Notes under the pieces: model-generated | Told to the model about the DNA's origin: nothing | Databases searched by the model: none | Seen by the model: the letters and a program-made list of their open reading frames with translations, nothing else | Translations under genes and position numbers: made by a program | Part shown: positions 25,862 through 44,191 of the stretch, in pieces | How positions within the stretch are numbered: position 1 is the stretch's first letter | Layout of the letters: each line of letters begins with the position of its first letter | Assembly (NCBI GenBank): GCA_963727495.1 | Contig: CAVSGQ010000014.1 | Location: forward strand, 351,051-415,050 | DNA from: an uncultured Actinomycetota bacterium | GTDB taxonomy: Bacteria; Actinomycetota; Actinomycetes; Mycobacteriales; Pseudonocardiaceae | Length of the DNA stretch: 64,000 nt | Direction of reading: 5' to 3'

Positions 25862-26271
25862 CCGACAACACGTGAGGGCGCAGCGGGTGAACAGCTGCTG
25901 TGTCCAGTGGGCGACGATGAGCCGCCGCGGCGAGGACGTGGTCGTGCGGGCGGGTCCACGGACCCGCCCGCACGGCCTGCCCGGCCACGCTGGGCCGCCT
26001 GCTCAACACCGCCATGGAACCGTCCACACCCCGGGCCGTAACGGCACCATCGCCGCGTCGACGACAAGCGCGCCGCGTGCGTCAACCAGGTGATCTGGGC
26101 TCCGATCCTGCTCGTTCCAGACGAAGCCGCCGGCTTCCGACCCAAGATCGCTGGTGGAGCGGCGGGGCCATGGCCCGGTTGGCATCCCGGCAGTCACGCC
26201 GTGAACGGATATCAGCCGACATGGACGGTGTTCGGGCCAGCCGCTCGCGAATCGACTTGAGTACCGGTCAG

Positions 26272-26697
26272 TCAGACTCCGTCCCAGTCGCCGGGCACGA
26301 GATAGGCATCCGATGGCGGATTGGCGTTGATCAGCCTGCCGCCCGCATACGGACCATCAGCACCATGAATCTGCAACCCGCCCACCCGGGTCACCCACGC
26401 AACCGTGTCCGTGCCGTCGCCGTTCCAGTCACCGGCGACCAGCACCTCGTCGGCGTTCGGCGTGGCATGAATCAGCACGCCACCCGCATACGGACCATCG
26501 CTCGCATGAATCTGCAGACCACCCTGCCGGGTCACCCACGCCACCGTGTCATCACCGTCACCGTCCCAGTCGCCCGGCAGCAGATAAGCATCCGACGGCG
26601 GACTCGCGTTGATCAACCGACCGCCCGCATACGGACCATCGCTCGCGTGGATCTGCAGACCGCCCTGCCGGGTCACCCACGCGACGGTGTCGCTGCC
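26272..26697 (-). repeat. Three ~138-bp coding repeats (A-B-C units)
   Basis: DTVAWVTRxGGLQIHxxDGPYAGGxLIxAxPxxDxxLxxGDWxGDG units, DNA nearly identical to those in the upstream gene. Confidence 0.95.
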
Positions 26698-27291
26698 GCC
26701 GCTGCAGTTGCGGCTGGCGACGTTGCGCCACTCGCCGCCGGCGCCGGGACCGTAGGTCACGCCGTTGAACACGGCCGCGACCCGCTCGGCGCCCTCGAAA
26801 CCCCAGGAGGCGCTGCCGTCGCCGTTGCTGTCGAAGCCCTGCTCGTAATGCAGGTGAGGCACGCCGTTGGAGGTCGGCCCGGTGTGCCCCACCCGGCCGA
26901 TCAGCTGTCCCCGCACGACCAGTGTGCCGACCGACACGGCCCGGGACTGCAGGTGGAGGTAGGTGGTGAAGTAGCCGCCACCGTGATCGATCTGGATGAC
27001 GTTGCCGGCGTTGGCGTGCACAAAGGACTGGTTCACCCGCCCGGCTGCTGGCGCGACCACCGGCGAACCCTCGGTGTCGCTCTGCGGCTCACGCACCATG
27101 TCCAGTGCCGGTGCGTGGGTGGAGTCCCAGGTGTTCAGTCGCCATTGCTGTCCACAGGGGAAGGGCAGCTGGAACGCCGGTGCGGCCGAGGCGGAGCCCG
27201 CGGACGCGACCAGGCCGCCCGCGACGAGGATCGCCGCGGTGACGGCGCCTACCATCGATCTGGCCCTTCCGGAAAGACGTCTACTGTTCAT
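26272..27291 (-). CDS. Secreted M23 family peptidase with three C-terminal FG-GAP/VCBS-like repeats
   Basis: Signal peptide ending ASA; FQLPFPCG, HAPALD (HxxxD) and YLHL (HxH); GDWDGDG/GDWNGDG repeats. Confidence 0.88.
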   Translation of the reverse strand: MNSRRLSGRARSMVGAVTAAILVAGGLVASAGSASAAPAFQLPFPCGQQWRLNTWDSTHAPALDMVREPQSDTEGSPVVAPAAGRVNQSFVHANAGNVIQIDHGGGYFTTYLHLQSRAVSVGTLVVRGQLIGRVGHTGPTSNGVPHLHYEQGFDSNGDGSASWGFEGAERVAAVFNGVTYGPGAGGEWRNVASRNCSGGSDTVAWVTRQGGLQIHASDGPYAGGRLINASPPSDAYLLPGDWDGDGDDTVAWVTRQGGLQIHASDGPYAGGVLIHATPNADEVLVAGDWNGDGTDTVAWVTRVGGLQIHGADGPYAGGRLINANPPSDAYLVPGDWDGV

Positions 27292-27326
27292 CAGAGTTCC
27301 CTTTCTGACACGCAAGCGGGTCGAAG

Positions 27327-28030
27327 TCAGCTGCCGTCCCAGTCGCCGGCGATCAAGTAGGCATCGGATGCGGGGTTGGGGTCGATCAGGCGACCGCCGG
27401 CGTAGGGGCCGTCGCTTGCGTGGATTTGCAGGCCCCCTTGCCGGGTCACCCAGGCGACCGTGTCGTCGCCGTCACCGTCCCAGTCGCCGGGCACGAGATA
27501 GGCATCCGATGGCGGATTGGCGTTGATCAGCCTGCCGCCCGCATACGGACCATCAGCACCATGAATCTGCAACCCGCCCACCCGGGTCACCCACGCAACC
27601 GTGTCCGTGCCGTCGCCGTTCCAGTCACCGGCGACCAGCACCTCGTCGGCGTTCGGCGTGGCATGAATCAGCACGCCACCCGCATACGGACCATCGCTCG
27701 CATGAATCTGCAGACCACCCTGCCGGGTCACCCACGCCACCGTGTCATCACCGTCACCGTCCCAGTCGCCCGGCAGCAGATAAGCATCCGACGGCGGATT
27801 GGCGTTGATCAGCCTGCCGCCCGCATACGGACCATCAGCACCATGAATCTGCAACCCGCCCACCCGGGTCACCCACGCAACCGTGTCCGTGCCGTCGCCG
27901 TTCCAGTCACCGGCGACCAGCACCTCGTCGGCGTTCGGCGTGGCATGAATCAGCACGCCACCCGCATACGGACCATCGCTCGCATGAATCTGCAGACCAC
28001 CCTGCCGGGTCACCCACGCCACCGTGTCGC
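27327..28030 (-). repeat. Five ~138-bp coding repeats including a near-perfect 276-bp tandem duplication
   Basis: Segments ~27490-27765 and ~27766-28030 are nearly identical. Confidence 0.95.
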
Positions 28031-28652
28031 TGCCACTGCTCCACAATCTCGACACGAGAAGCTGTGCATCGTGCTCCTCCCGGCCGTACGCGTCCGGCAC
28101 CGCCGAGCGCTGGACGGCCTGGCAGATCGCGCCGATGGAGCCGCTCATCCAGGAGTTGTTCGGATAGATCCGCAGCATCGCGTTCAGGAACGCATTGGTC
28201 GCATACACCGGATCGGTGATCTGTGCGGGAGTCCCCCAGCCTTGTGACGGCCGCTGCTGGAACAGCCCCAGGCTGTCGTGGTCCACGGCCTCGGTGTAGT
28301 TGTGCAGGGTGCTCTCGGTGATCGCGGTCGTCGTCGCGATCACCGCCGCCCGCTGGTTCAGCCCCCGGCCTCGCACGGTGTTCACGATCGTCCGGGCGCA
28401 GGACACGTTGTATGCACTGACCTGCTGGCCCAGCCGAGGCCCGTTCATTTTCGGTCGGACACGGTCCGCGACCGCGGCATCGGCAGCCGTCGGTCCACCC
28501 TGGACACATTGACCAGTAGCGATCAATGCGCCGAGGGACGGCGGCACCGGAGCCCCGCCCGGCCCCGGAACCGCCGGGCCGGCGACGGCCGGTGCGGCGA
28601 AGACCGCTAACGCCGCTGCCGAGTTCAGAAGAATGAAAAGACGTCTCATCAC
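27327..28652 (-). CDS. Secreted lysozyme/lytic-transglycosylase-like protein with five FG-GAP/VCBS-like repeats
   Basis: Signal peptide; AITESTLHN...DHDSLGLFQQRPSQGWG motif typical of actinobacterial lysozyme-like domains; same repeats as the neighbouring gene. Confidence 0.75.
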   Translation of the reverse strand: MMRRLFILLNSAAALAVFAAPAVAGPAVPGPGGAPVPPSLGALIATGQCVQGGPTAADAAVADRVRPKMNGPRLGQQVSAYNVSCARTIVNTVRGRGLNQRAAVIATTTAITESTLHNYTEAVDHDSLGLFQQRPSQGWGTPAQITDPVYATNAFLNAMLRIYPNNSWMSGSIGAICQAVQRSAVPDAYGREEHDAQLLVSRLWSSGSDTVAWVTRQGGLQIHASDGPYAGGVLIHATPNADEVLVAGDWNGDGTDTVAWVTRVGGLQIHGADGPYAGGRLINANPPSDAYLLPGDWDGDGDDTVAWVTRQGGLQIHASDGPYAGGVLIHATPNADEVLVAGDWNGDGTDTVAWVTRVGGLQIHGADGPYAGGRLINANPPSDAYLVPGDWDGDGDDTVAWVTRQGGLQIHASDGPYAGGRLIDPNPASDAYLIAGDWDGS

Positions 28653-28666
28653 GGCTCGCCGCGGCT

Positions 28667-29062
28667 TCAGTTGTAGACGCTGGACGCGGACGGGCAGATG
28701 TTCAGCCAGTGCTGCGTGTCGTTGACGAGAGCTGTGTTGTGGTCCTGGATCGCGGTGCGATGAATGGCATTGACGTCCAGCCGCATCGCGTGTCCGGTGT
28801 TCGGGCCGACGATACCGTCGACCGAGAGGTTGCCCTTCCGCGACTGGTAGGTCTTCACGCCATTTCTGGTGCCGCTACCGAAGATGCTGTCCTCGGAACC
28901 GCCGATGCCGATTCCGAAGTACGTGTGCACGACGTGCTGGGCGCACCACACGGGCACCCCGCGGTCCCCGTAGTCGACGTCGGCAGATGCCGCCGACACG
29001 GACAGCCCGACTGCCGCGAACGCGGTGGCGGCCACGACGCCGATTCTCAGTGCGTTTCTCAT
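28667..29062 (-). CDS. Small secreted peptidoglycan-binding domain protein
   Basis: Signal peptide ending ASA; DSIFGSGTRNGVKTYQ...LSVDGIVGPNT (PG_binding_1 pattern). Confidence 0.8.
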   Translation of the reverse strand: MRNALRIGVVAATAFAAVGLSVSAASADVDYGDRGVPVWCAQHVVHTYFGIGIGGSEDSIFGSGTRNGVKTYQSRKGNLSVDGIVGPNTGHAMRLDVNAIHRTAIQDHNTALVNDTQHWLNICPSASSVYN

Positions 29063-29137
29063 GGTCGAGTTCCTCCCTGTTCGGTCGCCCCGATGCGGGC
29101 GTGTGCGCACTGTCTGGCACCCGATGGAGGCGTAGCT

Positions 29138-29161
29138 GGATTCCGACCGATCCCGAACGCC
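29138..29161. promoter_or_regulatory. Shared upstream motif, copy 1
   Basis: GGATTCCGACCGATCCCGAACGCC, 76 bp upstream of the peptidoglycan-protein cluster; matches 32758-32782. Confidence 0.5.
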
Positions 29162-29474
29162 CGGTGAAGGTCACTGACGCAGCCGCGAATCTCGTCGGCG
29201 TCTTGCATGCTGAGGTGGACGTCGAGGTCAAGGGCGGCGCTCACCGCGTCCACCGGCTGACCAGATCAGGGCACCCATCCGACAGGGCGCATGTGGTCGC
29301 GGTCGATCCGACGACGCGTTTGCTCTCATCGCCGCGGTTGCGGGCGGTGGCGTAGCGAGGTCCCAGCGGTCCTTTCCGGCGCCCAGAACAGGTCAACACC
29401 CGGCAGTCACGCCGGAACAGATGTCAGCCGTCATGGACGGACTGGTCTGGCGGGCGGGTGGGGGTGGGAATGGG

Positions 29475-30083
29475 TTATAGCCAGCCGCGCTCGTCGGCCA
29501 CTCGCAGGGCTTCTATCCGGTTGCGGGTGCCGGTCTTGGTGGTGGCGCCGGACAGGTAGTTCCGCACGGTGCCCTCGGCCAGGTACAGCCGAGAGGCGAT
29601 CTCGGCGACGGTGGCGCTGGAACGGACCGCGATGAGCACGTCACGTTCGCGGGCAGTGAGCGGCGACTGGCCTGCCGCCAGTGTGGCCGCGGCCAGCGCC
29701 GGATCCACCACCCGCTCGCCGGCCATCACCCGCCGGATTGCGTCAGCGAGTGTGTGAGCCGGGGCGTCCTTCACGACGAACCCGACGGCGCCTGTCTCCA
29801 TGGCTCGGCGTAGGTAGCCGGTACGGCCGAAGGTGGTCAGGACGACCACTTTGCAGTCGGGCACTTGCGCGGTGAGCACCGCAGCCGCCGCGAGGCCGTC
29901 CAACCCGGGCATGTCGATGTCCAGCAGCGCGACGTCCGGGCGGTGTTGCAGCGCCGCGCCGGTAACCTCGTCGCCGCGGCCGACCGACGCCACCACCTCG
30001 AAGTCCGGTTCGAGGTCGAGCAGGGCGCGCAGCGCCTGTCGGATCAGCTCCTGGTCGTCGGCGAGCAGCAGGCGGATCGTCAT
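29475..30083 (-). CDS. NarL/LuxR family response regulator (DesR-like)
   Basis: MTIRLLLADD, LLDIDMPGLDG, LTTFGRTGY and a LuxR HTH; ATGA overlap with the kinase. Confidence 0.93.
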   Translation of the reverse strand: MTIRLLLADDQELIRQALRALLDLEPDFEVVASVGRGDEVTGAALQHRPDVALLDIDMPGLDGLAAAAVLTAQVPDCKVVVLTTFGRTGYLRRAMETGAVGFVVKDAPAHTLADAIRRVMAGERVVDPALAAATLAAGQSPLTARERDVLIAVRSSATVAEIASRLYLAEGTVRNYLSGATTKTGTRNRIEALRVADERGWL

Positions 30084-31225
30084 GCTGACGCCTCCACCCG
30101 CAGTGACCAGCCGCAGGGCCGCGTGGGGCCGGCGGTCAGCACCGCACCGGCCGCGGTCACCCTGGCGCGCAGACCGTCCAGCCCGGATCCCGCACCGGCC
30201 GGACCGCCAACCCCGTCGTCGCGCACCTCCACGAAGGACGCGGCCAGCTCCACGGTGCACCGGCTGGCCCGCGCGTGCCGCACCACGTTCGTCAACCCTT
30301 CCCGGACAACCCAGCCGAACAGTTCCTGCCGCTCCGGCGGCACCCCGTCGTAGGCGGTGGGCAGGTCCGCGACGACCCCCGCCGCCCGCAGCAGCTCCCG
30401 GCCCCGGGCGAGCTCGCCGGCGAGTGTGACATCCCGGTACCCGGACACCGCAGCCCGCACGTCGGCCAGCGCCTGACGGGACAGCTGCTCCACCGATTCC
30501 ATCTCGGCCAGCGCCGCAGGAGGTGCGCCGACGGCCAACCTTCGAGCCAGGGTGCTCTTCACCGTGATGGCGGTGAGCGAGTGGCCAAGCAGGTCGTGCA
30601 GATCGCGGGCGATCCGGTTGCGTTCAGCCTCGGCGGACAGACTGGCCACCTCCGCCCTCGCCTCGCGCAGCTGCTGGTTGGCGGTAGCGGTGCGGCTGAA
30701 GGCGTGGACCAACAGCGCGGTGAACACCACGGCCACCGCGAAATACCAGTTCGGGCCGGTACTCCAGCCAGGCACCGTCATCGGCACCACGACACACGCG
30801 GTGGCGCCCAGAACCACCAGAGACGCCGCCGTCCGGGCCTCGACGCGCGCCGCTGCCGACGGCACGATCACCGCGGCAAGGATCAGCACGTTCTCGTGGG
30901 CCAGCGGCGCGACCAGCACGGCCAGCACCGTCATCACCGCCAGCAGCCACCAGTAGACCCGCCACCCCGATCGCATCGAGGCCACCACCATGGCCAGGTA
31001 GCAGGCAGAGATCGCCACCAACAGCACGTAGCCAACGACGAGGCCGGCGCCACGCGCGTACTGGGTGACACCCGCGGCCGCCAGGAACGGATAGCAGAGC
31101 ATGCCCAGTGAGAGCAGCAGCCGGCGCCGCTCGTCCAGGCCGCGCAGTTCCGCGGACGCCCGCCCGTCATCCACATCGGTGACCGTACCGCCAGCCGAGC
31201 GGACCTGCGCGGACGCTGTGATCAC
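30080..31225 (-). CDS. Membrane sensor histidine kinase (DesK-like, HisKA_3)
   Basis: Multiple TM segments, ERNRIARDLHDLLGHSL, REGLTNVVRH and DDGVG; GTGA overlap with the upstream gene. Confidence 0.92.
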   Translation of the reverse strand: MITASAQVRSAGGTVTDVDDGRASAELRGLDERRRLLLSLGMLCYPFLAAAGVTQYARGAGLVVGYVLLVAISACYLAMVVASMRSGWRVYWWLLAVMTVLAVLVAPLAHENVLILAAVIVPSAAARVEARTAASLVVLGATACVVVPMTVPGWSTGPNWYFAVAVVFTALLVHAFSRTATANQQLREARAEVASLSAEAERNRIARDLHDLLGHSLTAITVKSTLARRLAVGAPPAALAEMESVEQLSRQALADVRAAVSGYRDVTLAGELARGRELLRAAGVVADLPTAYDGVPPERQELFGWVVREGLTNVVRHARASRCTVELAASFVEVRDDGVGGPAGAGSGLDGLRARVTAAGAVLTAGPTRPCGWSLRVEASA

Positions 31226-31644
31226 CGGGCCGCGAAAGCGGTGCGCACGGACCGTGTGAGGGTCAGCAGGACAACGATGATCAGCAGCGCGCCGCACACC
31301 CCGTTCGCGATCTTGAACCAGACCGGAAAGGCGCCGGGAATCGATTCGATCACGACGATCGCCACCACCTGGGCCAGCGCGATGATCTGCACCCTGCGGT
31401 AGTTCCTCCGCGAGCCCCGGGCCATCGACACACCGATCGCGAAGGTGATCAGCGAGGCGACGGCGATGATCGAGCCGCGGATCCACACCGCATCGGTGAC
31501 CATGTCGGGGTCGCCGCTGAACACCACGATCGCCAACAGTGTCAACACGCTCACCGCCGCGTAGCCGCCGAGCAGCACCCGGGCGACGTTCAGCCTCTCG
31601 CGGATATCAGGGTCGGTCACGGTCGCGCTGGTCTGCTTCGTCAT
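31222..31644 (-). CDS. Small membrane protein (four TM) heading the two-component operon
   Basis: 140-aa hydrophobic ORF translationally coupled to the kinase. Confidence 0.8.
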   Translation of the reverse strand: MTKQTSATVTDPDIRERLNVARVLLGGYAAVSVLTLLAIVVFSGDPDMVTDAVWIRGSIIAVASLITFAIGVSMARGSRRNYRRVQIIALAQVVAIVVIESIPGAFPVWFKIANGVCGALLIIVVLLTLTRSVRTAFAAR

Positions 31645-31704
31645 GCCCTCAATGCTGATCGCCCCGCGTTCCCGCTGGTAGCGACGCTGCCCACCACCTC
31701 ATCG

Positions 31705-31716
31705 TGACATCTGTCA
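31705..31716. promoter_or_regulatory. TGACA-N2-TGTCA inverted repeat, candidate response-regulator operator
   Basis: TGACATCTGTCA about 60 bp upstream of the operon start. Confidence 0.45.
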
Positions 31717-31847
31717 GAAACTGGACATCCGACGGACCACGCTGCCGCGTACGCGCAGCCGGCGTGACGATTCCGCGCACCGCGCAGACCCTCCAACGCC
31801 TGTCCGCTCCTGCCCGACGTTCGCCGCGGTGCCGGTGTGGATCGACA

Positions 31848-32467
31848 TCAGCGTGGGCCCGGCGGCGGGAACCGGCGGATGGCCACGCCGACGAGCCGGT
31901 CCCGCGGCACGAACCCGTAGTGTCGCGAGTCCCAGCTCGTCGGCCGGTTGTCGCCGAGCACGACCACGTGCCCGGGCGACACCACGAGAACAACGGCTAT
32001 GTCGTCAGCGGCGATGACCAGCACCGCCCCGGTCACCCCCGCGAGCACAGCGACCGCGAGCTCGCGCGCGGACTGGAGGTGCCCCGGCGCTAGCGCGCCG
32101 CCGGCGGCCAGACCGGCAAGCAACAGGTTGCGGACCACGTGCCCAGGTCCGAGCGGCGCGGCCGACCTGCCGAAGCAGCGGCACGGCGCGCGCCGCCCAC
32201 GCCGCAGTGCCATCGCGACGGCACCGGTGAAGCGAGCAGTAGCCCGTCGGCCAGCACGAAGCCAACGGTCGCGGTGGCGGGCACGGCGAGGAGGACGGCG
32301 ACAGCGCTCTCCGCCGCCACCGTGACCCCGAGCGGGGCGAGCCACCGGTCCTCCACCCCGGCGCGGGCCGGCAGCGACCGCAGAAAACCGCGGAAGTCTC
32401 GCAGCTTCGACACCGAGGAGACGGCGAAGACGACGAGAAGCACGGCACAACTCCGGACGAACTCCAT
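31848..32467 (-). pseudogene. MauE/DoxX-family membrane protein fused by deletion to the C-terminus of an S26 signal peptidase
   Basis: VFAVSSVSKLR, CRCFG and HVVRNLLL (MauE), then VVVLGDNRPTSWDSRHYG (S26 box); frameshift near 32235. Confidence 0.8.
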
Positions 32468-32529
32468 GTCACGCTCCAGCAGGGCCGGGCGGCGCCTCAC
32501 GGACGCCGCCCGGCGCGATCGGGACCGCC

Positions 32530-32693
32530 TCAGCAGGGGCCATGTAGGTCCATTCGCAGCCGCCAATCGGGCGGCAGAACCGCCACCACAGGCCTGGGCG
32601 GCCCTGTGCGTTGCACAAGTCCTTGCCCTGACACGCGGAAGCAGTGGTGCTGGGCACGATCTTCACGAGCACGCGGTCAATGAATCGGCTCAT
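32530..32693 (-). CDS. Cys-rich secreted peptide precursor
   Basis: Leader MSRFIDRVLVKIVPSTTASA then core CQGKDLCNAQGRPGLWWRFCRPIGGCEWTYM. It ends at 32530 (..MGPC*) if one G is missing, otherwise it reads to 32469. Confidence 0.7.
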
Positions 32694-32757
32694 CGCTCTC
32701 CCTTCGCCCTTGTCGCGCCGAGCCTGCGCCGAAGGGTGAAAAAAGCGGCAGAGCGGC

Positions 32758-32782
32758 GGATCCCGACCGAAATCCGAACGCC
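32758..32782. promoter_or_regulatory. Shared upstream motif, copy 2
   Basis: GGATCCCGACCGAAATCCGAACGCC, 65 bp upstream of the peptide gene. Confidence 0.5.
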
Positions 32783-32790
32783 AGCGGGGT

Positions 32791-35700
32791 TCAGGACTCC
32801 GAAGGCGGCGTCGGAGGGTCGATGTTGTCGAGTAGGGTGCGGAGCTGGTTCGCCTCGGGCGCGCCGAGTTCGGTGTAGACGGTCAGAGCGAGCCGGTAGT
32901 GCTCGCGCGCACGGTCCGGATCGGCGAGCGCATGGTGGGCGTGGCCCAGCCCCGTATCGGCGCGGGCCAGCTGCTCGCGGACCCCGATGTCGGCGGCGAT
33001 CGCGCGGGCGGCACCGTGGTGGGCGAGGGCGTCAGCGGGGCACCCGGCCGCGAGCGCGGCCTCGCCGAGCCCGTTCCGCGCCCACGCCTCGCCGTGCCGG
33101 TAGCCGGTCTCGCGGAACAGGCGCAGCGCGTGCTGGTGGTGCTCGGCGGCCCGCCCGGGTTCGCCGAGCCGGGTGTGCAACAGTCCGAGACCGTCCAGGG
33201 CGTTGGCCTCACCGGTGCGGTTGCCGAGCTGCCGGAGATGGGTCAGGGCCTGGCGAAGGTGGTGGCCGGCCGGCTCGTACCAGCCCGCACGTGTCTCGAC
33301 GTCGGCCAGGTTGATCAGCGAGTATCCCTCGCTGTCCCGGTCACCGAGCCCACGAACCACGTCCAGCGCCTGCGCATAGTGCTCGGTGGCCGCCTCGTAG
33401 CGGCCCAGTCGCTTCTCGATGAAAGCGAGGTTGTTGAGCGAGCGGGCCTCCCCCGCCGGGTCGCCGGCCTTGCCGTACAGCCGCAAGGCTTGCGAGTAGT
33501 GCGCGGCGGCCGCGCCGTAGTGGCCCGTCTGCGCCTCGACGATGCCGAGATTGTTCACCGTGCGGGCTTCCCCGGCCGGGTCGCGGATCTGCCGGAACAG
33601 CTCAAGCGCCTGCCGGTAGTGCTCGGCCGCCGGCGCCGGCCGGCCGAGCCGCAGGTGCGCGGCGCCGAGGTCGGTCAGGGCGTGGGCCTGCCCCAACCGG
33701 TCGCCCGTTCTGCGGCCGGCGCGCAGGGCGTGGCCGTGCACGGCCATGGCGTCGGTGGGGTGGCCGCTGGTGAGGTAGCGGAACAGTGTGCGCGACAGCC
33801 GGACGGTGAGGTCGGGCCAACCGTGCGCTGCGGTGTGCCCGGCGATCGCGACCAGGGTGTGCCGTTCGGCGTCCAGCCAGGCGAGGGCGGTGTCCGGGTC
33901 GGCCAGGTCCGGCGCGGGGGCGGCGGCCGGTGCGATCTCGGGCCGGAGGTGGGCCTCGGCGGGATGCAGCGTGCTCATCGCGGCGGCGGCGGTCGCGAGA
34001 TAATGGTCGAACAGGCGAGTCAGCACGGCGTGCCGGTCCGCGGGGCGGTCTTCGTCGTGCGCGCGAATGGTGGCATACGCGCGGACGAGGTCGTGGAAGG
34101 TGTGCCGGCCTGGAATGCCTTGCTGCAGCAGGTGATCGCCGCACAGGTGGTTCAGGTGCGCTCGCGCCGTGTCGAGGTCGGTTCCGGCCAGCGCGGCGGC
34201 GGCGTAGGCGTCCACGTCGTGGCCGGGGTGCAGGGCGAGTAGTCGCAGCAGGCGGCGCCGGTCGGCGGGCAGGTGGTGATAGGACAGGTCCAGGGCGAGC
34301 TCGACGCCGGTGTCCAGGCGCCGGTCGCGGTGCCGTTCCTCGAGCCAGATGGCGTGGTCGGTCAGCGTCCAGCCGGGCTTGGCACGGATGTGCCCGGCCA
34401 CGAGCCCGAGCGCCAAGGGCAGATGGCCACACGCCTCGACGATCCGCGTCGGCGCCCCGGGGTCGTCACCTGCTGGGACCTCGCTTGCGGTGCGGGCCAG
34501 GAACGTCCGGCCCTCGTCCGTGGTGAACACGTCGATCGCCAGGCACGCCACCGGGTCGAGGTCACAGAGGCTGCGGCGGCTGGTCACCAGCACGGCGCAG
34601 CCCGCGGTGCCGGGGAGCAGCGGCCGGACCTGGTTTGCGTTCGCGGCGTTGTCGAGCACGATCAGCGCACTCATGCCGCCGACCCGGCGGCGGTAGAGCG
34701 CTGCCCGGGCGTCCAGGTCGTGCGGGATGCGGTGCCCGGCAACGCCCAGCAGGCGCAGGAAGGCGTCGAGGACGGCGGCCGGGTCGGCGGGCGGCTGTGC
34801 CGGATCGGGATGGAAGCCACGCAGGTTGACGAACAGGACGCGGTCGAACGGCCGTTCCCGGTCGAGCATGTGCGCGGCGTGAATCGCGAGCTGGGTCTTG
34901 CCGACCCCGGCCATGCCTTCGATCACGGAGATCACCGCGCGCGCGCCGGCCTGCTGAGCGCCGGCGAGGGCGCGGCGCAAGCGTTCCAGCTCGGGGGCGC
35001 GGCCGGTGAACGTCGCCAGGTCCGGCGGCAGCGTGTCCTGCACCCGGACCTGCCCTGCCGCGGCGCTCTCGCCGCCGATCACCTGCAGCGCCTGCCGCCA
35101 CTGCGCGACGTAGCCCACATCTGGATGAAGCGCCTGGACCACGGCGATGACGAGGTCCGTGCTCAGCCGCCGCCGGCCGAGCCGGAAGGAGTCGACCACG
35201 GTGGTCTTCCCCACCATCTCACCGGCGGACCGGCCCGCCATGGCCCAGGTCGCGTTGACGCGGTCCTTGATGGTCTCGTAGGACGGGCTGCCGGCCCAAA
35301 CCTTCAACGATCGCAACCGTTCGACCAATCCGTCCACAGTGGTCGCCTGACCCGGGTCGGGCGGCGGTGTGGGAGCCGGCCGCTCCGCACCGGTATGCGT
35401 GCCCCGGGGAATGAGCAGCCGCAGATGCTCCGCCGGGAGGGTGGACAGCAGCGCCGGGTCGGCCAACCATGCCTCCAGCGGCGCCCGCCTGCCGAGGACG
35501 CCCTGTGGCTGCTCGCTGTTCCACCGGCGCACCCAGTCGAGCAGCGCGGCCGTGAACGCCTCGTACGTCATCGGCGGCGAGCACTCGAAGCTGCTCCTCG
35601 CGGCGCGGGCCACCGCTCGCGCCTGCGTCAGCGGTGTGGCCACCACGTCCACGGCCAGGGCTCCGAGCGCGGCCCGGATCGCGGTGCGCAGCTCGTCGTC

Positions 35701-36366
35701 GCTCGGCTCGGTGTGGACCGCCAACGGCAGCCCGCCCGGCGGGCCGTAGGGTTCGGTCATGCTGATCGCCGCGCGAAGCGCGGCGAGGACCGGCTCACGG
35801 CCGGGCGGTCCCGGGCTGACCACGGTGCCGCACACCGCATGGCTCGCGCGGTCGACGAACCACGTGATCCACGGGCGGACCGGCCCCCCGCCGGTGCCGA
35901 CCTCGAGGGGTGCGGCCAGCCGGGCCGCCTCCCAGACGACGTTGCGGCACATCGCCGGCAGCCGCCGACCGCCCTCGCCGCGCAGCCGTGGCCGCACCGC
36001 CGGTGTCACGTCCCGGGCCAGTGCGCGCCGCAACGTCGCCATGCTCGGCGACGGCGGTCCGCCCGCCGCGGCGACGGCCGCCAGCTCCCGGTGCAGGGCA
36101 GAAACGTTGCCCCGCAAGTCCGCCAGCCGCCGCCGTATCGCGTCGTCGACGCGGAACCGGTCGCGGATCCCGGCGGTGACCTGCCCGGTGACACGGGCGC
36201 GGTTCAGCCACCGCCGCACGGTCCGCTCTGTCACGCCGACGCTCCCGGCCACCAGGCGCACCTGCGCCCGAGTCAGCCGCCCGGCCGTCTCGAGCTCCAG
36301 GAGCCGACGAACCGCGGCTTCGCGCCACCGCCGCGAAGCCGCCACCTCATTCGAAACCTCAGTCAC
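32791..36366 (-). CDS. Fusion of a degenerate TnsB/Mu-type transposase with XRE-HTH, NB-ARC and TPR domains
   Basis: Uninterrupted frame. N-terminal HTH and RPWITWFVD/PYGPPGGLP/WVRRWN transposase motifs, then LKVWAGSPSY HTH, GMAGVGKT, IVLDN, FHDLVRAYA and many TPRs. Likely start GTG 36366 after a TAGATT -10-like box. Confidence 0.8.
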   Translation of the reverse strand: MTEVSNEVAASRRWREAAVRRLLELETAGRLTRAQVRLVAGSVGVTERTVRRWLNRARVTGQVTAGIRDRFRVDDAIRRRLADLRGNVSALHRELAAVAAAGGPPSPSMATLRRALARDVTPAVRPRLRGEGGRRLPAMCRNVVWEAARLAAPLEVGTGGGPVRPWITWFVDRASHAVCGTVVSPGPPGREPVLAALRAAISMTEPYGPPGGLPLAVHTEPSDDELRTAIRAALGALAVDVVATPLTQARAVARAARSSFECSPPMTYEAFTAALLDWVRRWNSEQPQGVLGRRAPLEAWLADPALLSTLPAEHLRLLIPRGTHTGAERPAPTPPPDPGQATTVDGLVERLRSLKVWAGSPSYETIKDRVNATWAMAGRSAGEMVGKTTVVDSFRLGRRRLSTDLVIAVVQALHPDVGYVAQWRQALQVIGGESAAAGQVRVQDTLPPDLATFTGRAPELERLRRALAGAQQAGARAVISVIEGMAGVGKTQLAIHAAHMLDRERPFDRVLFVNLRGFHPDPAQPPADPAAVLDAFLRLLGVAGHRIPHDLDARAALYRRRVGGMSALIVLDNAANANQVRPLLPGTAGCAVLVTSRRSLCDLDPVACLAIDVFTTDEGRTFLARTASEVPAGDDPGAPTRIVEACGHLPLALGLVAGHIRAKPGWTLTDHAIWLEERHRDRRLDTGVELALDLSYHHLPADRRRLLRLLALHPGHDVDAYAAAALAGTDLDTARAHLNHLCGDHLLQQGIPGRHTFHDLVRAYATIRAHDEDRPADRHAVLTRLFDHYLATAAAAMSTLHPAEAHLRPEIAPAAAPAPDLADPDTALAWLDAERHTLVAIAGHTAAHGWPDLTVRLSRTLFRYLTSGHPTDAMAVHGHALRAGRRTGDRLGQAHALTDLGAAHLRLGRPAPAAEHYRQALELFRQIRDPAGEARTVNNLGIVEAQTGHYGAAAAHYSQALRLYGKAGDPAGEARSLNNLAFIEKRLGRYEAATEHYAQALDVVRGLGDRDSEGYSLINLADVETRAGWYEPAGHHLRQALTHLRQLGNRTGEANALDGLGLLHTRLGEPGRAAEHHQHALRLFRETGYRHGEAWARNGLGEAALAAGCPADALAHHGAARAIAADIGVREQLARADTGLGHAHHALADPDRAREHYRLALTVYTELGAPEANQLRTLLDNIDPPTPPSES

Positions 36367-36400
36367 GGTCGCCAGTGAATCTACCCCAGCACGGCCAGCG

Positions 36401-36455
36401 GACACGAGATGAGAAATCGGCGACACCTGCTGAGAACCCGATCAGATTGGGAGAA
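36401..36455. repeat. GACAC-N4-TGAGAA direct repeats (candidate transposon-end/TnsB sites)
   Basis: Copies at 36401-36415 and 36422-36436 (21-bp period), plus a degenerate third copy at 36440-36455. Confidence 0.55.
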
Positions 36456-38367: not shown

Positions 38368-40256
38368 GTAAGCATTCACGTGCTTGATCGTGGGCATGAC
38401 GTGTCCACGGTGGATGTGGTGATGTCCGTGGGCGGTGTCCGGGCTTCAGGCGGGTGCGGGGCGGGGTGGTCGCCACGGGTTTCCGAGGACAGCCCGGCGG
38501 AGCGCGGTCATGACGTTGATGCCCTGTTTGCGGGCGGTGTCGATGTAGCTGCGGATGTCGAGTCGGTCTTGGGTGACGGTTTCGCTGGTGAGTCGCCCGG
38601 AGATCTTCTGCTGGGTTTTGGTGGGTCGCAGGTCGCGTTCGCTGATGTTGTTGGTGGGCCAGATCCGGGTGTCGGTGGTGAAGCGCAGGACGTCGGCCTC
38701 GCGGGTACGGCAGAACTCCAGCAGCTCGCGTCCGGGGCGCTGCGCGGTGGAGTGGCGCGGCCCCGGCACCCGGGGCACCCGTGACAGACCGACCCGCACC
38801 GCGCGGCGAAACTCCAGGGACAGCTCGTCGCGGACCTGTTCGGCGATGGCGGGCAACCCGGCGTCACGGGCGGCATGCCAGGCGGTGATCAGGCCGCGCA
38901 GCGCACGCTGCGCTTGGGCGGGCCACTGCGCTTCGGGGTAGGTCTCGGCAGCGTCGGCGAAATCCCTGAGTAGGTGAGCTGCGCAGGCCTGATGCCCGGT
39001 GAGGGTGTCCCAGCGGGGGTGGAAGTAGTTGGCGTAGCGGTCATGCACCGCGATACCCGCAAACGAGGGGAGGATGCCGAATTCAGCGAACGAGTCCAGG
39101 TCCCGACCAGCCAGGTGGTAGGCGGTGGCATCCTCGGTCGACGCGGACAGCACGTACTTCTTGCTCCCTGCCGGCCCGCAGCGCAGCGTGGTCTCGTCGA
39201 AACCCACGACGTGCGCCAGCGCGATCAACGTCTTGATCGCGGCGACGACCTGCGCGACCGCGACCGCGCACCGAGTGAGCATGCCGTGCACGAACCCGTC
39301 CGACGGTCCGGTCCCACCGGTCAGGTCGGCGATCAACTGCACACACCGCTGCACCGGAACGTGTTGGTAGACCAACAGATAGACGGTCAGCGACTTCAGA
39401 TTCACCCCGTAGCTCGACGGTGCCGTCGACACCTCGTCCGGCAGTTGGCCGACGTGTTCGGCGCCGCAGCCGCAGCGGACCCGATACACATCGTGCTGCC
39501 ACACCGTGATCGCCACCTCGGGCAGGTCATGAACCTGATGGGAACGCTCGACACCCACATCGTGTGCCGCGGCCAGGTCCGCCCCGCATCCACAGCAACC
39601 ATGCGGACGGTGCGGCACCCACTCATCCGGCACGGCCACCCACGGCAGCGCGTTACCCCGGGCGCCTTTCTGCTTGCCCCGCTGGCGTCCAGAACCCTTC
39701 GCCCGCTTCGACGCCGGCATGCTCTTACCTGGAAGGTCATCAGCCGACGGCGGCATCGAGGAGTTCCCACTGTTACGCGAGACCTGACGCTCCAACCGCC
39801 GCACACGCTCCTCCAACGCGGCGTTCGCCTCACGCAACCCCACGATGAGCGCAATCATCTCCTCGCGCGACAACTCCTCCAACCCGGACACAGCCCAAGA
39901 TCCCCGTCCCACGCCGGTCGTAACCCGGACACCGCCGCAGGCAACGCGAACACCGCCCCCGCCGCCCCGCCCTGACCCGCACTCGCAGGATCAGGTCCCA
40001 CTGACCGTCCTCACCGGAGATCTCCCGAGAGGTCGACTCGACCACCGTGTCCTGGACCCCGAGCAGGTCCCGTAATAGTCTCGTAGGGCGCACGCCGTCC
40101 CATCCATGATCGTTCCTGTGCTTCGCAACTCAGAAACGTAGACGGTCGCACGGCGTGCGCCCTAATCGATCATGAAACCCCGCCCACCCCAACGGCAGAA
40201 GGTCCCAACTGTCACGCACCGACACGCACAAGATCAACCACCACGTGAATGCTTAC
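38368..40256 (-). mobile_element. IS66-family element copy 2 (transposase 38446-39891 identical to copy 1) carrying an extra ISL3 5' fragment
   Basis: Same IRs as copy 1; 8-bp TSD ATCGCGGG; 1889 bp versus 1602 bp for copy 1. Confidence 0.95.
39905..40195 (-). pseudogene. ISL3 transposase N-terminal fragment inside IS66 copy 2
   Basis: MRPTRLLRDLLGVQDTVVES...GRCSRCLRRCPGYD zinc-finger start. Confidence 0.7.
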
Positions 40257-40330
40257 ATCGCGGGAGCGGTCACCATCGACGCGCCGGTCGACGAGGTCTT
40301 CGACATGGTTGCGGACGAGCGCAACGAGCC

Positions 40331-41295
40331 GAAACAGCCCGATCTGACGGGCCCGTTCCAGCCGGATCCGCTGTTCGTCATTGGCCTTCGACATCAGTCG
40401 CCAGCGCCTCCCTTTCGGTCCTGAATAGACAGACCGCCGAAAGCTGCCAGACCAAGATCCATGCGTGGGAGAGGCGACTCGTGTTGCTAAACGATCATGG
40501 CCAGCCCGGCGCCAGCAGACGGCCACCCGACACCGAAACCGCGAGCAACCACGCAGGCACCTCGCCAACGTTCGAGCCGACACCCGACCACCGCGACCGC
40601 GCCGCCACACCTGCCCCGACGATCGCGGCGACCGCGTCGGCGAACACCGACCCCGTCACCGCCGGCACCACCGGATCCACCCCCACCTCCACCAGCAGCG
40701 CGGTGAACACCACCCGCACCGGATCCGCCCGGCCAGCGAAACACCGCAGCCAGCCACGCACCGTGTCCACCGGCCGCCCCACCACCGCAGCCACCGCCCG
40801 AACACCCGCTCCGGCCGCCTTCGCCGCCAACGCGGCACCGATCACCGTCACCACATCCGCCCGCCGCAACAGCGCGAACACCGGGAGCAGGACATGCGAC
40901 CGCCCGCACGAACCACACCGCGACCGCCGAGGCCGCACCACCACCGAGCCACCACCAACGGCACCGCCACCCCGCAGCACCCGCGACCGGGCCCACCCCC
41001 ACGGCCCCAACAAACCCCCACAATCCGGACACGCCAGCTCGCCTCGAACAAGCCTGTCCTCGACCCGGACAGCATCCACCCCTACCGTGAGCACAGCGCC
41101 TTCACCCGCGCGCGACACGGCCCTCCCGGGACACGCTCGGCCAGAGAGATACCGGGAGGGCCTTCGCATGCCCTCACCGGCACGGTGCCGCCGCCCACCA
41201 ACACCGCACCGTCACCAGCACGCACCAAGATCCGTCGGCACTCACAATGCCCGGAAACCGCCCCCCAACGTCGGAATCCCCAGCGCCGTTCAACA
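40331..41295 (-). mobile_element. Left part of a DUF6431 / DDE integrase / ExeA-type transposon
   Basis: End TGTTGAACGGCG at 41295. ORF 40495-41094 (CPDCGGLL..WGWAR..RRSRCGSCGRSHVLLP), then integrase start ...RLERARQIGLFR truncated near 40331. Confidence 0.7.
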
Positions 41296-41399
41296 CGGCC
41301 ACCACCCCACGCCGGCCAGCAACAACGCTTGCGCCAGCCCGACCAGCCTTGGTGACCACTACGACCCCACCCCGGCCAGTGCCGAAGGTCGATCCGCGA

Positions 41400-41857
41400 A
41401 CCCGACAAGGATCGGCACCAGCCCGACACAGTCCAGCGACGGCATCGGGCACTATCGGCGACCCTCGGCCTGGCCGCTGGTGATCATCGGCCTTGCCGCC
41501 GCCATCTCCGTGTGGTCCGGGTGGGTCGGCCTCGGCCACCTCGCCGGCTTCGGCACGATCCAACCCCTCCCCGGCCTCTGGGACGACCTCCGGATCAACA
41601 CAGCAGTCGCCTTGCCCATCTCCGTGGAGGCCTACGCCGCCTACGCCCTACGCTGCTGGCTCACCAACCACGACATCACCAGCCTCACCATCGGCGCCAA
41701 CGCCCAGATCGCCTACCACCTCATGACCGCCGCAGGACTCCACCACGCACCCTGGCCCGTCACCGTCGGCGTCGCCACCATCCCGGTCATCGTCCTCGGC
41801 CTCGCCACCGCACTCGCCAACCTCATCCGCAACCCCCAAGAAGGCAGTACGGCATGA
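41400..41857 (+). pseudogene. Integrative-element (AICE/plasmid) Spd-like membrane protein, copy 1 with 39-bp deletion
   Basis: WPLVIIGLAAAISVWSGWVGLG...LPISVEAYAAYALRCWL; a paralog lies at 61690-62124. Confidence 0.6.
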
Positions 41858-41978
41858 CCCGACAGGCTCAAACCGCTCAGGCGGCGGCCAGGTTCCACCC
41901 CCTGCGACACCGGCGAGCGGCTACGGCGGCGACAGAAGACCATGGTCTCCGCCACAACGGGCAGGCCGGCCCAAGAAG

Positions 41979-42314
41979 TCAAGCGCTCGGGCGTTCGTCG
42001 AGAAGGCGTCGCAGATGCTCCGTCGTGACCCGCATATCACGTTCCCAACGCTCCCGCGCCTCATCACCCTGTCCGCCAGCCTCATCCAATCTGGCGATCA
42101 CCCATTCCCGCACCAACACACTCGGCTCAACCCCACGAGCCCGCGCCACCCCGCGAAGCTGCTCGATCCGCTCCCCCGGCAACCGCAACCCATAAACCTG
42201 GGACCGACCCGGCACACGACGCCGATAATCCAACTCCACGTCACGCGTACTCTCCGCATGCTCAGCCTCGACCGCGAGCCTGTCGAACAACTCCTCGTCC
42301 CGCTCAGTCATCAC
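41979..42314 (-). CDS. Ribbon-helix-helix antitoxin (BrnA/CopG-like)
   Basis: SQVYGLRLPGERIEQLRGVARARGVEPSVLVREWV. Confidence 0.7.
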   Translation of the reverse strand: MMTERDEELFDRLAVEAEHAESTRDVELDYRRRVPGRSQVYGLRLPGERIEQLRGVARARGVEPSVLVREWVIARLDEAGGQGDEARERWERDMRVTTEHLRRLLDERPSA

Positions 42315-42323
42315 CGCACCTCC

Positions 42324-42689
42324 TCACCACTGCTCCTCACCACCGGCCGGGCCCGCATACGCATCACGCAACCGGCGCTGCGCCGGCCACGCAGTCGCAA
42401 CATGCCACAACCCACTCGGTGGATGTTCATCCGGCAACATCACCACCACCAGCAACCGACCAGCGGTAACCGAATACCCGACAACCCGAATCGCCTCACC
42501 ACTACGCGACTTCGGATCACGCGCAATCAGCGCGTGCGGATCCAACGCCGCCTCGACCGCCGCTACCGGCTCAACATCAACCGCACCGGGATACCGCAAC
42601 GACCGACGCAGATGCGCCGGGTCCGGCACATCAACCTCATAGATCGGCAACTCCGGCACCGGAACACCGTCGTACACCTCCTCCTGCAC
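42324..42689 (-). CDS. BrnT-like toxin
   Basis: EAALDP...DPKSRSGEAIRVVGYS...LLVVV...ATAWPA; probable leaderless start after a TATACA -10 box; lies upstream of the RHH gene. Confidence 0.6.
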   Translation of the reverse strand: MQEEVYDGVPVPELPIYEVDVPDPAHLRRSLRYPGAVDVEPVAAVEAALDPHALIARDPKSRSGEAIRVVGYSVTAGRLLVVVMLPDEHPPSGLWHVATAWPAQRRLRDAYAGPAGGEEQW

Positions 42690-42948
42690 ACCCTCGAGTG
42701 TATAACGCCGTTCAACAGTCCGCCAGCAAGTGGACAGCCAGTCTCGATCAACAGAGGGGTGCCGGCCAGCGCTACAACGGTGGCTGTACCAGGTACAAAC
42801 CCCCGGTGGCGGGTGAGTACCGGTGCGCCCTGGCGGGACGTGCAGTGGCATATGGGTCGGGCGGGTGAGTTGGGATGTCGGTGTGGACTCGACGATCGCC
42901 CGGGCGCATTGAGCATGCGGCGGGTGCACGGTACGACTATGAGGATGA

Positions 42949-44191
42949 TCAACGAATGGCTCTGATCAACCCCGACACAGGCCATGGCCGGCCGCGTGAG
43001 CGGCCGGCCATGGCCGCCGCGGCGCCGCCGTTCCGGCGCACCCGAAGGAAGACGATTGTGGCCACGCCGAGCGCGACGGTCAGGATCGCGGAGGCGGCGA
43101 TGGTGTGCTTGGCGCCGATCGTGCTGACGAGCGGACCGCCGACGAGGGTGCCGAGCGGGATGGACAGGTTGAGCATCGTCGAATTGGCGGCCAGCACCTG
43201 AGGCCTGTTCAGCTCGGTCGTGGACCGTTGGAGCAACGCCATGGAGGTGGAGGGGAACGGTGCCCAGGTCAGGCCGCCGAGACCGAAGGAGACCAGTGCG
43301 ACCACCGTGGGGAAGCCAAGACCGAGCGGCAGCAGGGCCAGCCCCCAGCCGATGACGGTGGCGATGGTGGTGAGCTGGATCGGCCAGCGTTGCAGATGGC
43401 CGGCGCCGAGTCCGCCGATGACCGCGCCGATGCCGAACGCGGTCCAGAACGCGGCCAATGTCGTGGCCGATCCGTCACCCGTCTCGGCGGTGAAGATCGG
43501 TAGCGCGACCCGCACCGGTCCGTACAGCAGGTAGAAGGTGAAACCGAGAATCAGCAGGCCGAGCAGGAGCGGGTTGCGAAACGTCGTCGCGAATCCGGTT
43601 GCCCGCTTGCCGGAGGGTTCGTTCGGCTCGAGCCGGGCGGTACGGGGGACCGCGAGCAGATAGGTGAGAGCGAGGACGGCGAACGTCGCCGCGTCGGCAG
43701 CGATGGCCAGCGGCGCGCCGCCGATGCTGATGACGACCGCGGCAATGCCTGGGCCGATCAGCGCGGCGAACTCGCTGAGGATGCCGATCAGCGCGTTGGC
43801 CGGCAGATGTTGCTCCTGGGGAAGGATCGCGGCCATGAGCGTGAACCGGCCCGCGTTCCCCCACGAACGCATCCACGAGGACAACGCGAGCAGAACGACG
43901 AACAACCAGATGTCAAGCAGCCCCACCAGCTGACACACCGGTATCGCGCCGAGCATGGTGGCGCGCAGGATCGCGTCCCAGCTCGCCATCTGGGCGCCGC
44001 TTCGACCACTCATGAACCAGTCGAGCAACAACGTGCCGAGCAGAGCCGGGCACGCTCGTCGCCGCCAGGGCGGCGACCCATGCGCCACGACTGTCCGCGG
44101 GCGCGAGCTGGATCGCCAGCCAGCTGACCGCGACGACGCTCATTCCGTCGCCGACGGAGGAGATCGCGAAACCGGGTAGCAGCCGTCGCAT
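42949..44191 (-). CDS. MFS transporter (macrolide-efflux/H+ antiporter-like), frameshift near 44065
   Basis: FAISSVGDGMSVVAVSWL start, about 12 TM segments, ANALI and PLGTLVGG motifs. Confidence 0.8.

Follow-up and report, generated by a model that had tools for sequence, protein, structure and literature searches.

Regulators of the AfsR-type, NLR-like kind currently attract much attention as a means of waking silent actinomycete gene clusters. To our knowledge, relatives of these proteins that lack the SARP part have no annotation beyond 'tetratricopeptide repeat protein' or 'ATP-binding protein', and no known target. One such relative is a 1211-aa protein encoded in a 64,000-nt stretch of contig CAVSGQ010000014.1 from an uncultured Actinomycetota bacterium (this whole stretch is hereafter the window), in which two copies of a short tandem repeat lie ahead of two unrelated operons. 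It is likely, with a probability of roughly 0.8, that both repeats are operators, i.e., upstream activating sites, of one promoter class and that they are read by the XRE-like helix-turn-helix (HTH) domain of this AfsR-related STAND regulator.

Several described systems resemble parts of this arrangement. In Bacillus subtilis, GutR, reportedly the subject of a JBC paper by Poon et al. in 2001 (cited in PMC13581612), carries an N-terminal HTH followed by an NB-ARC-type nucleoside triphosphatase (NTPase) and tetratricopeptide repeats (TPR), and is an activator encoded beside its glucitol operon. The order of modules (HTH, STAND NTPase, TPR) is that of the window family, whereas no sequence relationship was found between the GutR HTH and the N-terminal domain (N-domain) of the window protein, and the GutR site and ligand (glucitol) are unrelated. 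The window family is also actinobacterial, multi-paralogous and tied to genes for secreted proteins and for ribosomally made peptides with post-translational modifications (RiPP). In E. coli, MalT is a signal-dependent STAND NTPase whose DNA-binding domains bind short repeated boxes just upstream of a promoter without a -35 element. MalT differs in its C-terminal LuxR-type HTH, its SUPR rather than TPR repeats, its boxes and its clade; by analogy, GutR and MalT can both be regarded as functional analogues of the window regulator. The pho boxes bound by PhoB/OmpR-type regulators are head-to-tail direct repeats, spaced by about one helical turn, that take the place of the -35 element. These proteins have a winged-helix fold, and their repeats have an 11-bp period and lie nearer to the -10 element than those of the window family.

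The scaffold of the window regulator is AfsR-like. From about residue 450 onward, the window regulator matches the NCBIfam AfsR model (E = 7e-114) and the AfsR structures PDB 8k60 and 8jke (E = 6e-116), and its NB-ARC/NOD and TPR parts are homologous to those of AfsR. AfsR-like proteins carry an F/Y-HD switch motif (bioRxiv 10.64898/2026.09.02.748808), found in the window protein as FHD, and both systems use tandem direct repeats beside promoters with a poor or absent -35 element. The difference lies at the N-terminus, where a predicted XRE-like HTH of about 100 aa replaces the SARP part (OmpR-type winged helix plus BTAD): Trans_reg_C and BTAD give no match in the window regulator, and the family profile aligns with AfsR from AfsR residue 279 onward only. 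In SARP systems, the repeats recur every 11 bp, the 3' repeat lies 8 bp away from the -10 element, with the centre of the afs box at -29.5 (PMC10936776), whereas the repeats of the window family have a 10-bp period, end 25 nt from the -10 element and are centred near -47.5. A SARP-type reading of the motif is ruled out by the missing SARP domain and by the wrong period and distance. A 2026 survey of AfsR-like proteins demanded AfsR's own domains, so the window family would be excluded from it.

The best NCBIfam matches to the NB-ARC/TPR part are HaaT (E = 1e-127) and the FxSxx-COOH system TPR protein (E = 1e-30). Both fall far below the curated cut-offs, the N-domain does not align to the HaaT model, and the window protein is not an equivalog (427 bits against a cut-off of 1125). 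These proteins likewise are encoded beside peptide natural-product genes (radical-SAM RiPP clusters), but they are named by NCBI as TPR proteins of biosynthesis systems and not as regulators.

The tandem repeat and the adjacent regulator family

In the window, site 1 (GGATTCCGACCGATCCCGAACGCC) occupies positions 29138-29161 and site 2 (GGATCCCGACCGAAATCCGAACGCC) positions 32758-32782, as read on the + strand. The genes at both sites are on the - strand, and in their orientation the sites read GGCGTTCGGGATCGGTCGGAATCC (29161 to 29138) and GGCGTTCGGATTTCGGTCGGGATCC (32782 to 32758). Measured from the gene-proximal end, site 1 is 76 nt away from the ATG at 29062 and site 2 is 65 nt away from that at 32693. 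Read in the direction of the genes, the motif consists of a 10-bp direct repeat in tandem and has the 20-mer consensus CGTTCGGATT-CGGTCGGGAT. Site 1 (core 29140-29159, - strand) reads CGTTCGGGAT-CGGTCGGAAT and is the predicted regulator-binding site of a peptidoglycan-related operon promoter. Site 2 (core 32760-32780, - strand) reads CGTTCGGATT-T-CGGTCGGGAT and begins 10 nt past the stop codon of the regulator; apart from the T inserted between the half-sites, it matches the consensus perfectly and is thus closer to it than site 1.

The initial annotation of this DNA had reported one motif in one orientation, 76 and 65 bp from two start codons, built on a CCGACC/CCGAAC direct repeat spaced by 10-11 bp. 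All of this is confirmed, the spacing being 10 bp at site 1 and 11 bp at site 2, and the two sites are the only copies in the 64 kb. A degenerate pattern spanning both has exactly two matches in the window and none in dinucleotide-preserving shuffles (mean 0.00, largest 0; 100 shuffles per pattern), and no third copy appears in the window at up to three, or at up to five, mismatches. The two upstream regions are alike within the motif alone, and both copies lie less than 3.7 kb from the regulator gene. An Rfam scan of 28000-34000 (E up to 1) gave two sub-threshold chance matches, neither of them at the motifs, which rules out a known RNA element there.

The regulator gene (32791-36426, - strand) encodes a TnsB-like remnant, a predicted XRE-like HTH, an NB-ARC domain and TPRs. 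Pfam places NB-ARC at residues 494-683 and matches TPR_12 with E = 5e-35, and the translation shows the Walker A motif GMAGVGKT, LIVLDNA and the FHD motif (HTFHDLVRAYA). The full fusion architecture was found in just three further proteins (P0003 to P0005, at loci L003, L004 and L005). These loci have unrelated neighbours, and each carries CGTTCGGATTCGGTCGGGAT or a two-mismatch variant 65-120 bp ahead of a neighbouring gene and pointing into it.

The motif also accompanies relatives outside the fusion. A pattern scan of 185,579 species genomes (one per species) allowed too loose a spacer and returned mostly random matches across all phyla. Among the matches listed, seven were exact to the 20-mer, and five of these lie 20-240 bp from the gene of a homologue of about 860 aa (L039, L041, L067, L090 and L106, from Actinoplanes (two), Rugosimonospora, Umezawaea and Micromonospora). 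A one-mismatch site in an uncultured actinomycete (L043) is placed likewise, and the sixth exact match, in Labedaea (L040), lies 43 bp past the gene of such a homologue. The C-terminal 840 residues of the window regulator alone match these loci, its N-terminal 370 residues matching nothing there. A second sample consisted of 80 metagenome loci (490 kb) picked by protein family alone, without use of the motif. These contain 26 sites with at most three mismatches, against 0 in the reversed sequence and 0 in dinucleotide shuffles.

The placement of the sites is regular as well. At the 80 loci, most lie 96-232 bp ahead of the regulator gene, which is divergent, and others 30-42 bp past its stop codon; a site just past the regulator stop recurs at L039, L067, L126, L130 and L205. 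Throughout the family loci the motif is directed away from the regulator gene. The layout of the window is repeated in Labedaea, where a perfect site lies past the regulator stop and a second perfect site about 4.8 kb off, before a ricin-lectin gene. At L129 (4871-4932), two back-to-back copies of the operator, 22 bp apart and on opposite strands, lie 1.6 kb downstream of the regulator and apparently serve two divergent genes. A literature search for TTCGGATTCGGTCGG found no paper with the sequence, and searches on NB-ARC/TPR/HTH regulators gave SARP/AfsR work only.

The core of the family is a protein of about 860 aa composed of a predicted XRE-like HTH, an AfsR-type NB-ARC domain and TPRs. 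Its first 100 residues or so are strongly conserved and form a family-specific N-domain, which in the window corresponds to 35041-35340 (- strand) and is predicted to be a five-helix, XRE-like DNA-binding HTH. The AlphaFold model, whose pLDDT is about 90 for residues 1-90, has five helices, and its best fold matches in the PDB are all XRE/Cro HTH proteins (C.Esp1396I, ClgR, HipB), with a probability of up to 0.9 and a TM-score to the target of 0.67 at E ~1. The N-domain was found in 452 clusters at 50% identity, nearly always at the start of proteins of 800-900 aa. A STAND NTPase and a repeat sensor are combined with a predicted DNA-binding domain in a single polypeptide, whose gene adjoins the putative target promoter in dozens of loci.

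Helix covariation and promoter geometry

Where the motif varies, its two half-sites change in concert, and the variants fall into groups according to the third helix of the N-domain. The helix KTTVVDCF goes with CGTTCGGATT-CGGTCGGGAT (GTTCGG/GGTCGG, the TCGG type) at many loci, whereas KTTVVSCF goes with CGTTCCGATT-CGGTCCGGAT (TTCCG/GTCCG, the TCCG type) at L141, L189, L144 and L132. At L166, RTTVMDCF is accompanied by CGGCCGG twice, and the K.T(V/I)ADCF helices of L138, L145, L176 and L202 by CGTCCGGGAT twice (TVAD: TCCGG). The remaining classes are STVA(Y/N)CF with CGTCCAAATT-CGTCCAGAAT (CGTCCAAAT) at L131, L133 and L172, RGTVVDCFK with CGTTTGGGAT (CGTTTGG) at L158, L167 and L170, and RPTVVDCFK with TGTATGGGAT (TGTATGG) at L142 and L201. 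Every helix class retains the position of the site and its phasing to the -10 element. A subfamily of about 40% identity (helix TVYRCF) has the same layout and architecture with CGACCGRCAT-type units. In the window, the third helix (GKTTVVDS, 35188-35211, - strand) provides the residues that covary with the half-site; the helix reads KTTVVDSF, for which the code predicts the TCGG type shown by both window sites.

The sorting also allowed a prediction. An RP-type regulator of Micromonospora sp. WMMD1128 (L206, a complete genome) was picked by its protein only; its site is GGTATGGGTT-TGTATGGGGT, with the A and T of the -10 element in place, 139 bp ahead of the neighbouring gene. The helix-based prediction held in this independent genome. 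The covariation supports the predicted XRE-like assignment of the N-domain and suggests a tentative amino-acid-to-base code.

Alignment of 38 non-redundant sites on the motif reveals, in the nucleotides that follow it, an A at +27 in 30 of the 38 and a T at +31 in 31, and no other upstream or downstream position is comparably conserved. The pair reads as the A(-11)/T(-7) signature of a predicted -10 hexamer, nAnnnT, lying 25 nt beyond the motif. With the -10 element at this distance, the repeat covers about -57 to -38. No -35 consensus is seen across the 38 sites, and neither sigma-70 consensus promoters nor intrinsic terminators were detected in 26000-33000 of the window. Head-to-tail repeats abutting a promoter without a -35 element indicate an activator site, and it is from this geometry that we infer activation. 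A reading of the motif as the -35/-10 elements of an extracytoplasmic function (ECF) sigma factor is ruled out, the -10 element sitting 25 nt past the motif.

Site 1 conforms to the family-wide geometry, with a predicted -10 hexamer GACAGT (29109-29114, - strand) exactly 25 nt past the core, i.e., at the canonical spacing, a predicted transcription start near 29102 and then a good ribosome-binding site (GGGAGGAA). The sole -10-like hexamer at site 2, CACCCT (32733-32738, - strand), lies 21 nt from the motif and not 25. The spacer between site 2 and this hexamer also holds a single-base indel, the C at 32747 of the window being absent from L001, an independent second assembly of the same organism that is 99.99% identical over 7.45 kb.

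The motif accompanies relatives of about 860 aa that have no transposase part, and it covaries with the XRE-like helix; the N-domain, and not the transposase-type HTH, is therefore the predicted reader of the motif. The initial annotation had proposed the whole fusion as a candidate activator. Co-occurrence across genera makes the NB-ARC/TPR protein by far the best candidate reader.

The transposase part itself (35341-36426, - strand) is a TnsB/Mu-type remnant made of an HTH and a degenerate RNase-H-like core. The first 370 residues of the window protein are homologous to the TnsB catalytic core (PDB 7svw, E = 1e-5), and their resemblance to transposases is weak. In-frame fusions of this kind are known in four proteins, with 58-62% identity in the transposase part, and the fusion junction retains the full N-terminus of ordinary regulators. 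The residue aligned to D205 of TnsB (WQCDHT) is Ala in the window (WEAARL) and Asp in L003-L005 (WEADQL); this DDE alignment covered the first Asp only, the second Asp and the Glu lying outside the aligned stretch. Mu-transpos_C is present in L004 and L005 and deleted in the window and L003. The lost first Asp, the deleted Mu-transpos_C and the intact N-terminus of the regulator imply that the transposase part is a degraded passenger or an accessory, and it does not link the regulator to the motif.

A proposed mechanism and its competitors

The proposal of two operators read by the XRE-like HTH is carried by computed observations: the motif exists, is non-random, co-occurs with the family, keeps a fixed phasing to the -10 element and covaries with the protein. 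Beyond these observations, we infer direct binding, an activating and not a repressing role, the kind of signal and oligomerization. A signal sensed by the TPR/NOD module would switch on the NTPase, two HTH domains would then bind the two half-sites on the same DNA face, between about -57 and -38, and the bound regulator would recruit or adapt RNA polymerase to the promoter lacking a -35 element. At site 1, whose geometry is canonical, this would drive an operon for secreted PG-binding, FG-GAP-repeat and M23 peptidase proteins (29062 to 26272). Site 2 would drive the 74-aa ORF (open reading frame) and the MauE/S26 remnants behind it, possibly weakly or no longer at all, as its geometry is off.

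A number of points weigh against this proposal. Site 2 departs both from the canonical half-site spacing, by its 1-nt insertion, and from the -10 phasing, by 4 nt. Some family members with ample flanks, e.g., at L147 and L128, have no convincing site, and L161 is an exception to the sorting, its KTTVADCF helix going with GTTCGG half-sites. Each covariation class may be a single clade, in which case the number of independent events is small. A Pfam search with the N-domain gives no match even at E = 10, and its Foldseek fold match is statistically weak (E ~1). The motif count for the source organism covers the 64-kb window, and the four sequencing runs that hold the locus are all metagenomic DNA, with no RNA runs for the organism.

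The most serious competitor concerns site 2 alone and is compatible with the operator reading of site 1: only site 1 would work, whereas site 2 would be a relic in decay, and the operon behind it would be dying. Besides the two departures just mentioned, this is suggested by the polymorphism of the spacer between the two assemblies, by the content of the operon (an orphan 74-aa ORF, a MauE gene with a frameshift and an S26 gene cut short) and by the decay of the regulator's transposase part. Against it, site 2 matches the 20-mer better than site 1 once the insertion is set aside, its place just past the regulator stop is a recurring layout of the family, and the ORF has a coding-like GC3 (G+C content at third codon positions) and stands immediately ahead of the MauE start. 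Decay of site 2 is thus possible, although the balance is tilted against it.

It is unlikely that the regulator, once bound to the repeat, represses its neighbour or regulates itself by blocking the neighbour's promoter or its own divergent one. The site does lie most commonly between divergent genes, 96-232 bp ahead of the regulator gene, repression is a frequent role of XRE-type HTH proteins, and the end of the motif coincides with the place expected for a -35 element, so occlusion is conceivable. However, the distance to the neighbour's -10 element is fixed at 25 nt, whereas that to the start of the regulator varies more than twofold; the -35 position has no consensus and no sigma-70-type promoter was detected; and tandem head-to-tail repeats just upstream of a promoter without a -35 element are typical of activators (PhoB, SARP, MalT). 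The homologue of the scaffold, AfsR, is itself an activator (PMC10936776).

A different reader, with the NB-ARC/TPR protein a mere neighbour of the motif, is very improbable. The candidates would be a dedicated sigma factor or the NarL/LuxR-type response regulator encoded at 29475-30083, between the two sites; the gene of a histidine kinase lies there too, and NarL-type regulators can bind repeated heptamers. Homologues of this kinase/regulator pair were found only in loci without the motif and at no other motif-bearing locus, and this lack of conservation is why the response regulator is rejected as the binder. In contrast, the NB-ARC/TPR gene adjoins the motif in dozens of loci and the half-site variants covary with a helix of its protein, while for a sigma factor the 25-nt gap to the -10 element misfits the -35 element of an ECF or sigma-70 promoter. 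Hardly credible at all is that the motifs are chance matches, which the shuffles and controls exclude, or binding sites at transposon ends: TnsB/Mu transposases do bind repeated sites of about 20 bp at the ends of their elements and the N-terminus of the fusion is TnsB-like, but the motif accompanies relatives without a transposase part, its copies are direct rather than inverted and each is phased to a -10 element and a start codon, and the transposase core of the window has lost its first catalytic Asp.

Putative targets in the family and in the window

A varied set of genes lies behind the motif, most of them for secreted proteins, together with RiPP or non-ribosomal peptide synthetase (NRPS) genes. 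Targets include PG_binding_1 proteins, ricin-type lectins, RTX calcium-binding repeats, FG-GAP, SH3b and fascin-like proteins, WXG100-like and YbaB-like proteins and an NRPS adenylation domain. At an unrelated locus (L139), a PG_binding_1 homologue 56% identical to that of the window lies behind the same motif. In a metagenome-assembled genome of Labedaea sp. (JBJMIG010000099.1; L205, 8610-13563), the regulator stands directly ahead of a class III lanthipeptide cluster, with a perfect operator between them; the cluster encodes a RamC-like synthetase, an ABC transporter and, as its 53-aa precursor, the peptide MTDIATLQ...TTSTICGAFTCNG... Nearby lie a further NB-ARC/TPR gene and a large regulator of the SARP type. 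In L039 (2661-2900) and L067, both Actinoplanes, the gene behind the motif encodes an XRE-type HTH protein of 78-79 aa, which suggests a regulatory cascade instead of a direct effector.

Given a predicted DNA-binding domain, a 20-bp operator whose promoter geometry is defined and a tentative code from amino acid to base, it becomes possible to predict targets of the family from sequence alone. Among them are genes for class III lanthipeptides, NRPS genes and many genes for secreted proteins, and the conserved FHD switch offers a handle for building constitutively active versions. In the window, the operator reading accounts for a 24-bp box common to two unrelated operons and picks out the relevant part of the transposase fusion.

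A broader conjecture, which we regard as doubtful, is that these proteins form a widespread and undescribed class of actinomycete NLR-like transcription factors. The code of helix 3 would specify the 10-bp half-site, and each private sensor would activate an adjacent, highly variable cluster of secreted effectors or peptide natural products (cell-wall hydrolases, lectins, RTX/WXG100 proteins, lanthipeptides) on a specific biotic cue, e.g., a phage or a competitor. The class would then be a transcriptional counterpart of Avs/NLR immunity, with the sensor of one lineage captured behind a domesticated TnsB transposase.

The window has a G+C content of 69%, as actinomycete DNA, and all genes around the two sites are on the - strand. 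Behind site 1 lie a gene for a 131-aa secreted PG_binding_1 protein (28667-29062), a gene for a 441-aa secreted protein with 47-aa FG-GAP-like repeats (27327-28652) and a gene for a secreted M23 peptidase with the same 47-aa repeats (26272-27315). Behind site 2, a 74-aa ORF with four Cys (32469-32693, GC3 0.80) ends one base ahead of the MauE start codon (TGAcATG). Among 5.8 billion proteins there is no homologue of this ORF, which thus yields no phylogenetic footprint. The MauE gene and a fragment of an S26 signal peptidase gene follow (31848-32467), with a frameshift near 32231-32234; the second MauE frame runs without a stop into the C-terminal 36 or so residues of the S26 signal peptidase. 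The sequence of L001 across 31848-32566 is the same as that of the window, and the split MauE and truncated S26 genes are probably pseudogenes. Beyond the S26 fragment come a 140-aa membrane protein and then the histidine kinase and LuxR-type response regulator pair.

These gene contents bear on the remaining claims of the initial annotation, which had placed both operons in one regulon of secreted effectors. The shared cis-element and the mostly secreted targets of the family speak for such a regulon, with the correction that site 2 is atypical. The membership of the Cys-rich peptide stands less firmly, this peptide being the product of an orphan ORF followed by a frameshifted MauE and a truncated S26 gene, so that half of the proposed regulon is possibly decaying.

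Some further features of the window were noted. The 313 bp between the stop codon of the response regulator and site 1 (29162-29474) contain no convincing ORF and no Rfam match. A second NB-ARC/TPR paralogue is encoded at 4912-7290 (+ strand); it is 40% identical over the NOD/TPR part, its N-terminal HTH is of a different type (LRLWAGQPSLRRLERL...), and no comparable tandem repeat was found near it. PADLOC gave a generic TPR match only. The FG-GAP-like repeats, of 141 nt (47 aa), lie at 26279-26719 in the M23 peptidase gene and at 27334-28056 in the gene for the 441-aa protein. The 300 nt at 26279-26578 are 100% identical to those at 27475-27774, which suggests a recent duplication or gene conversion between these adjacent genes. 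Elsewhere, over about 3 kb at 40000-43000, the composition profile is unusually skewed in GC (-0.21 to -0.27) as well as in AT (+0.20 to +0.34).

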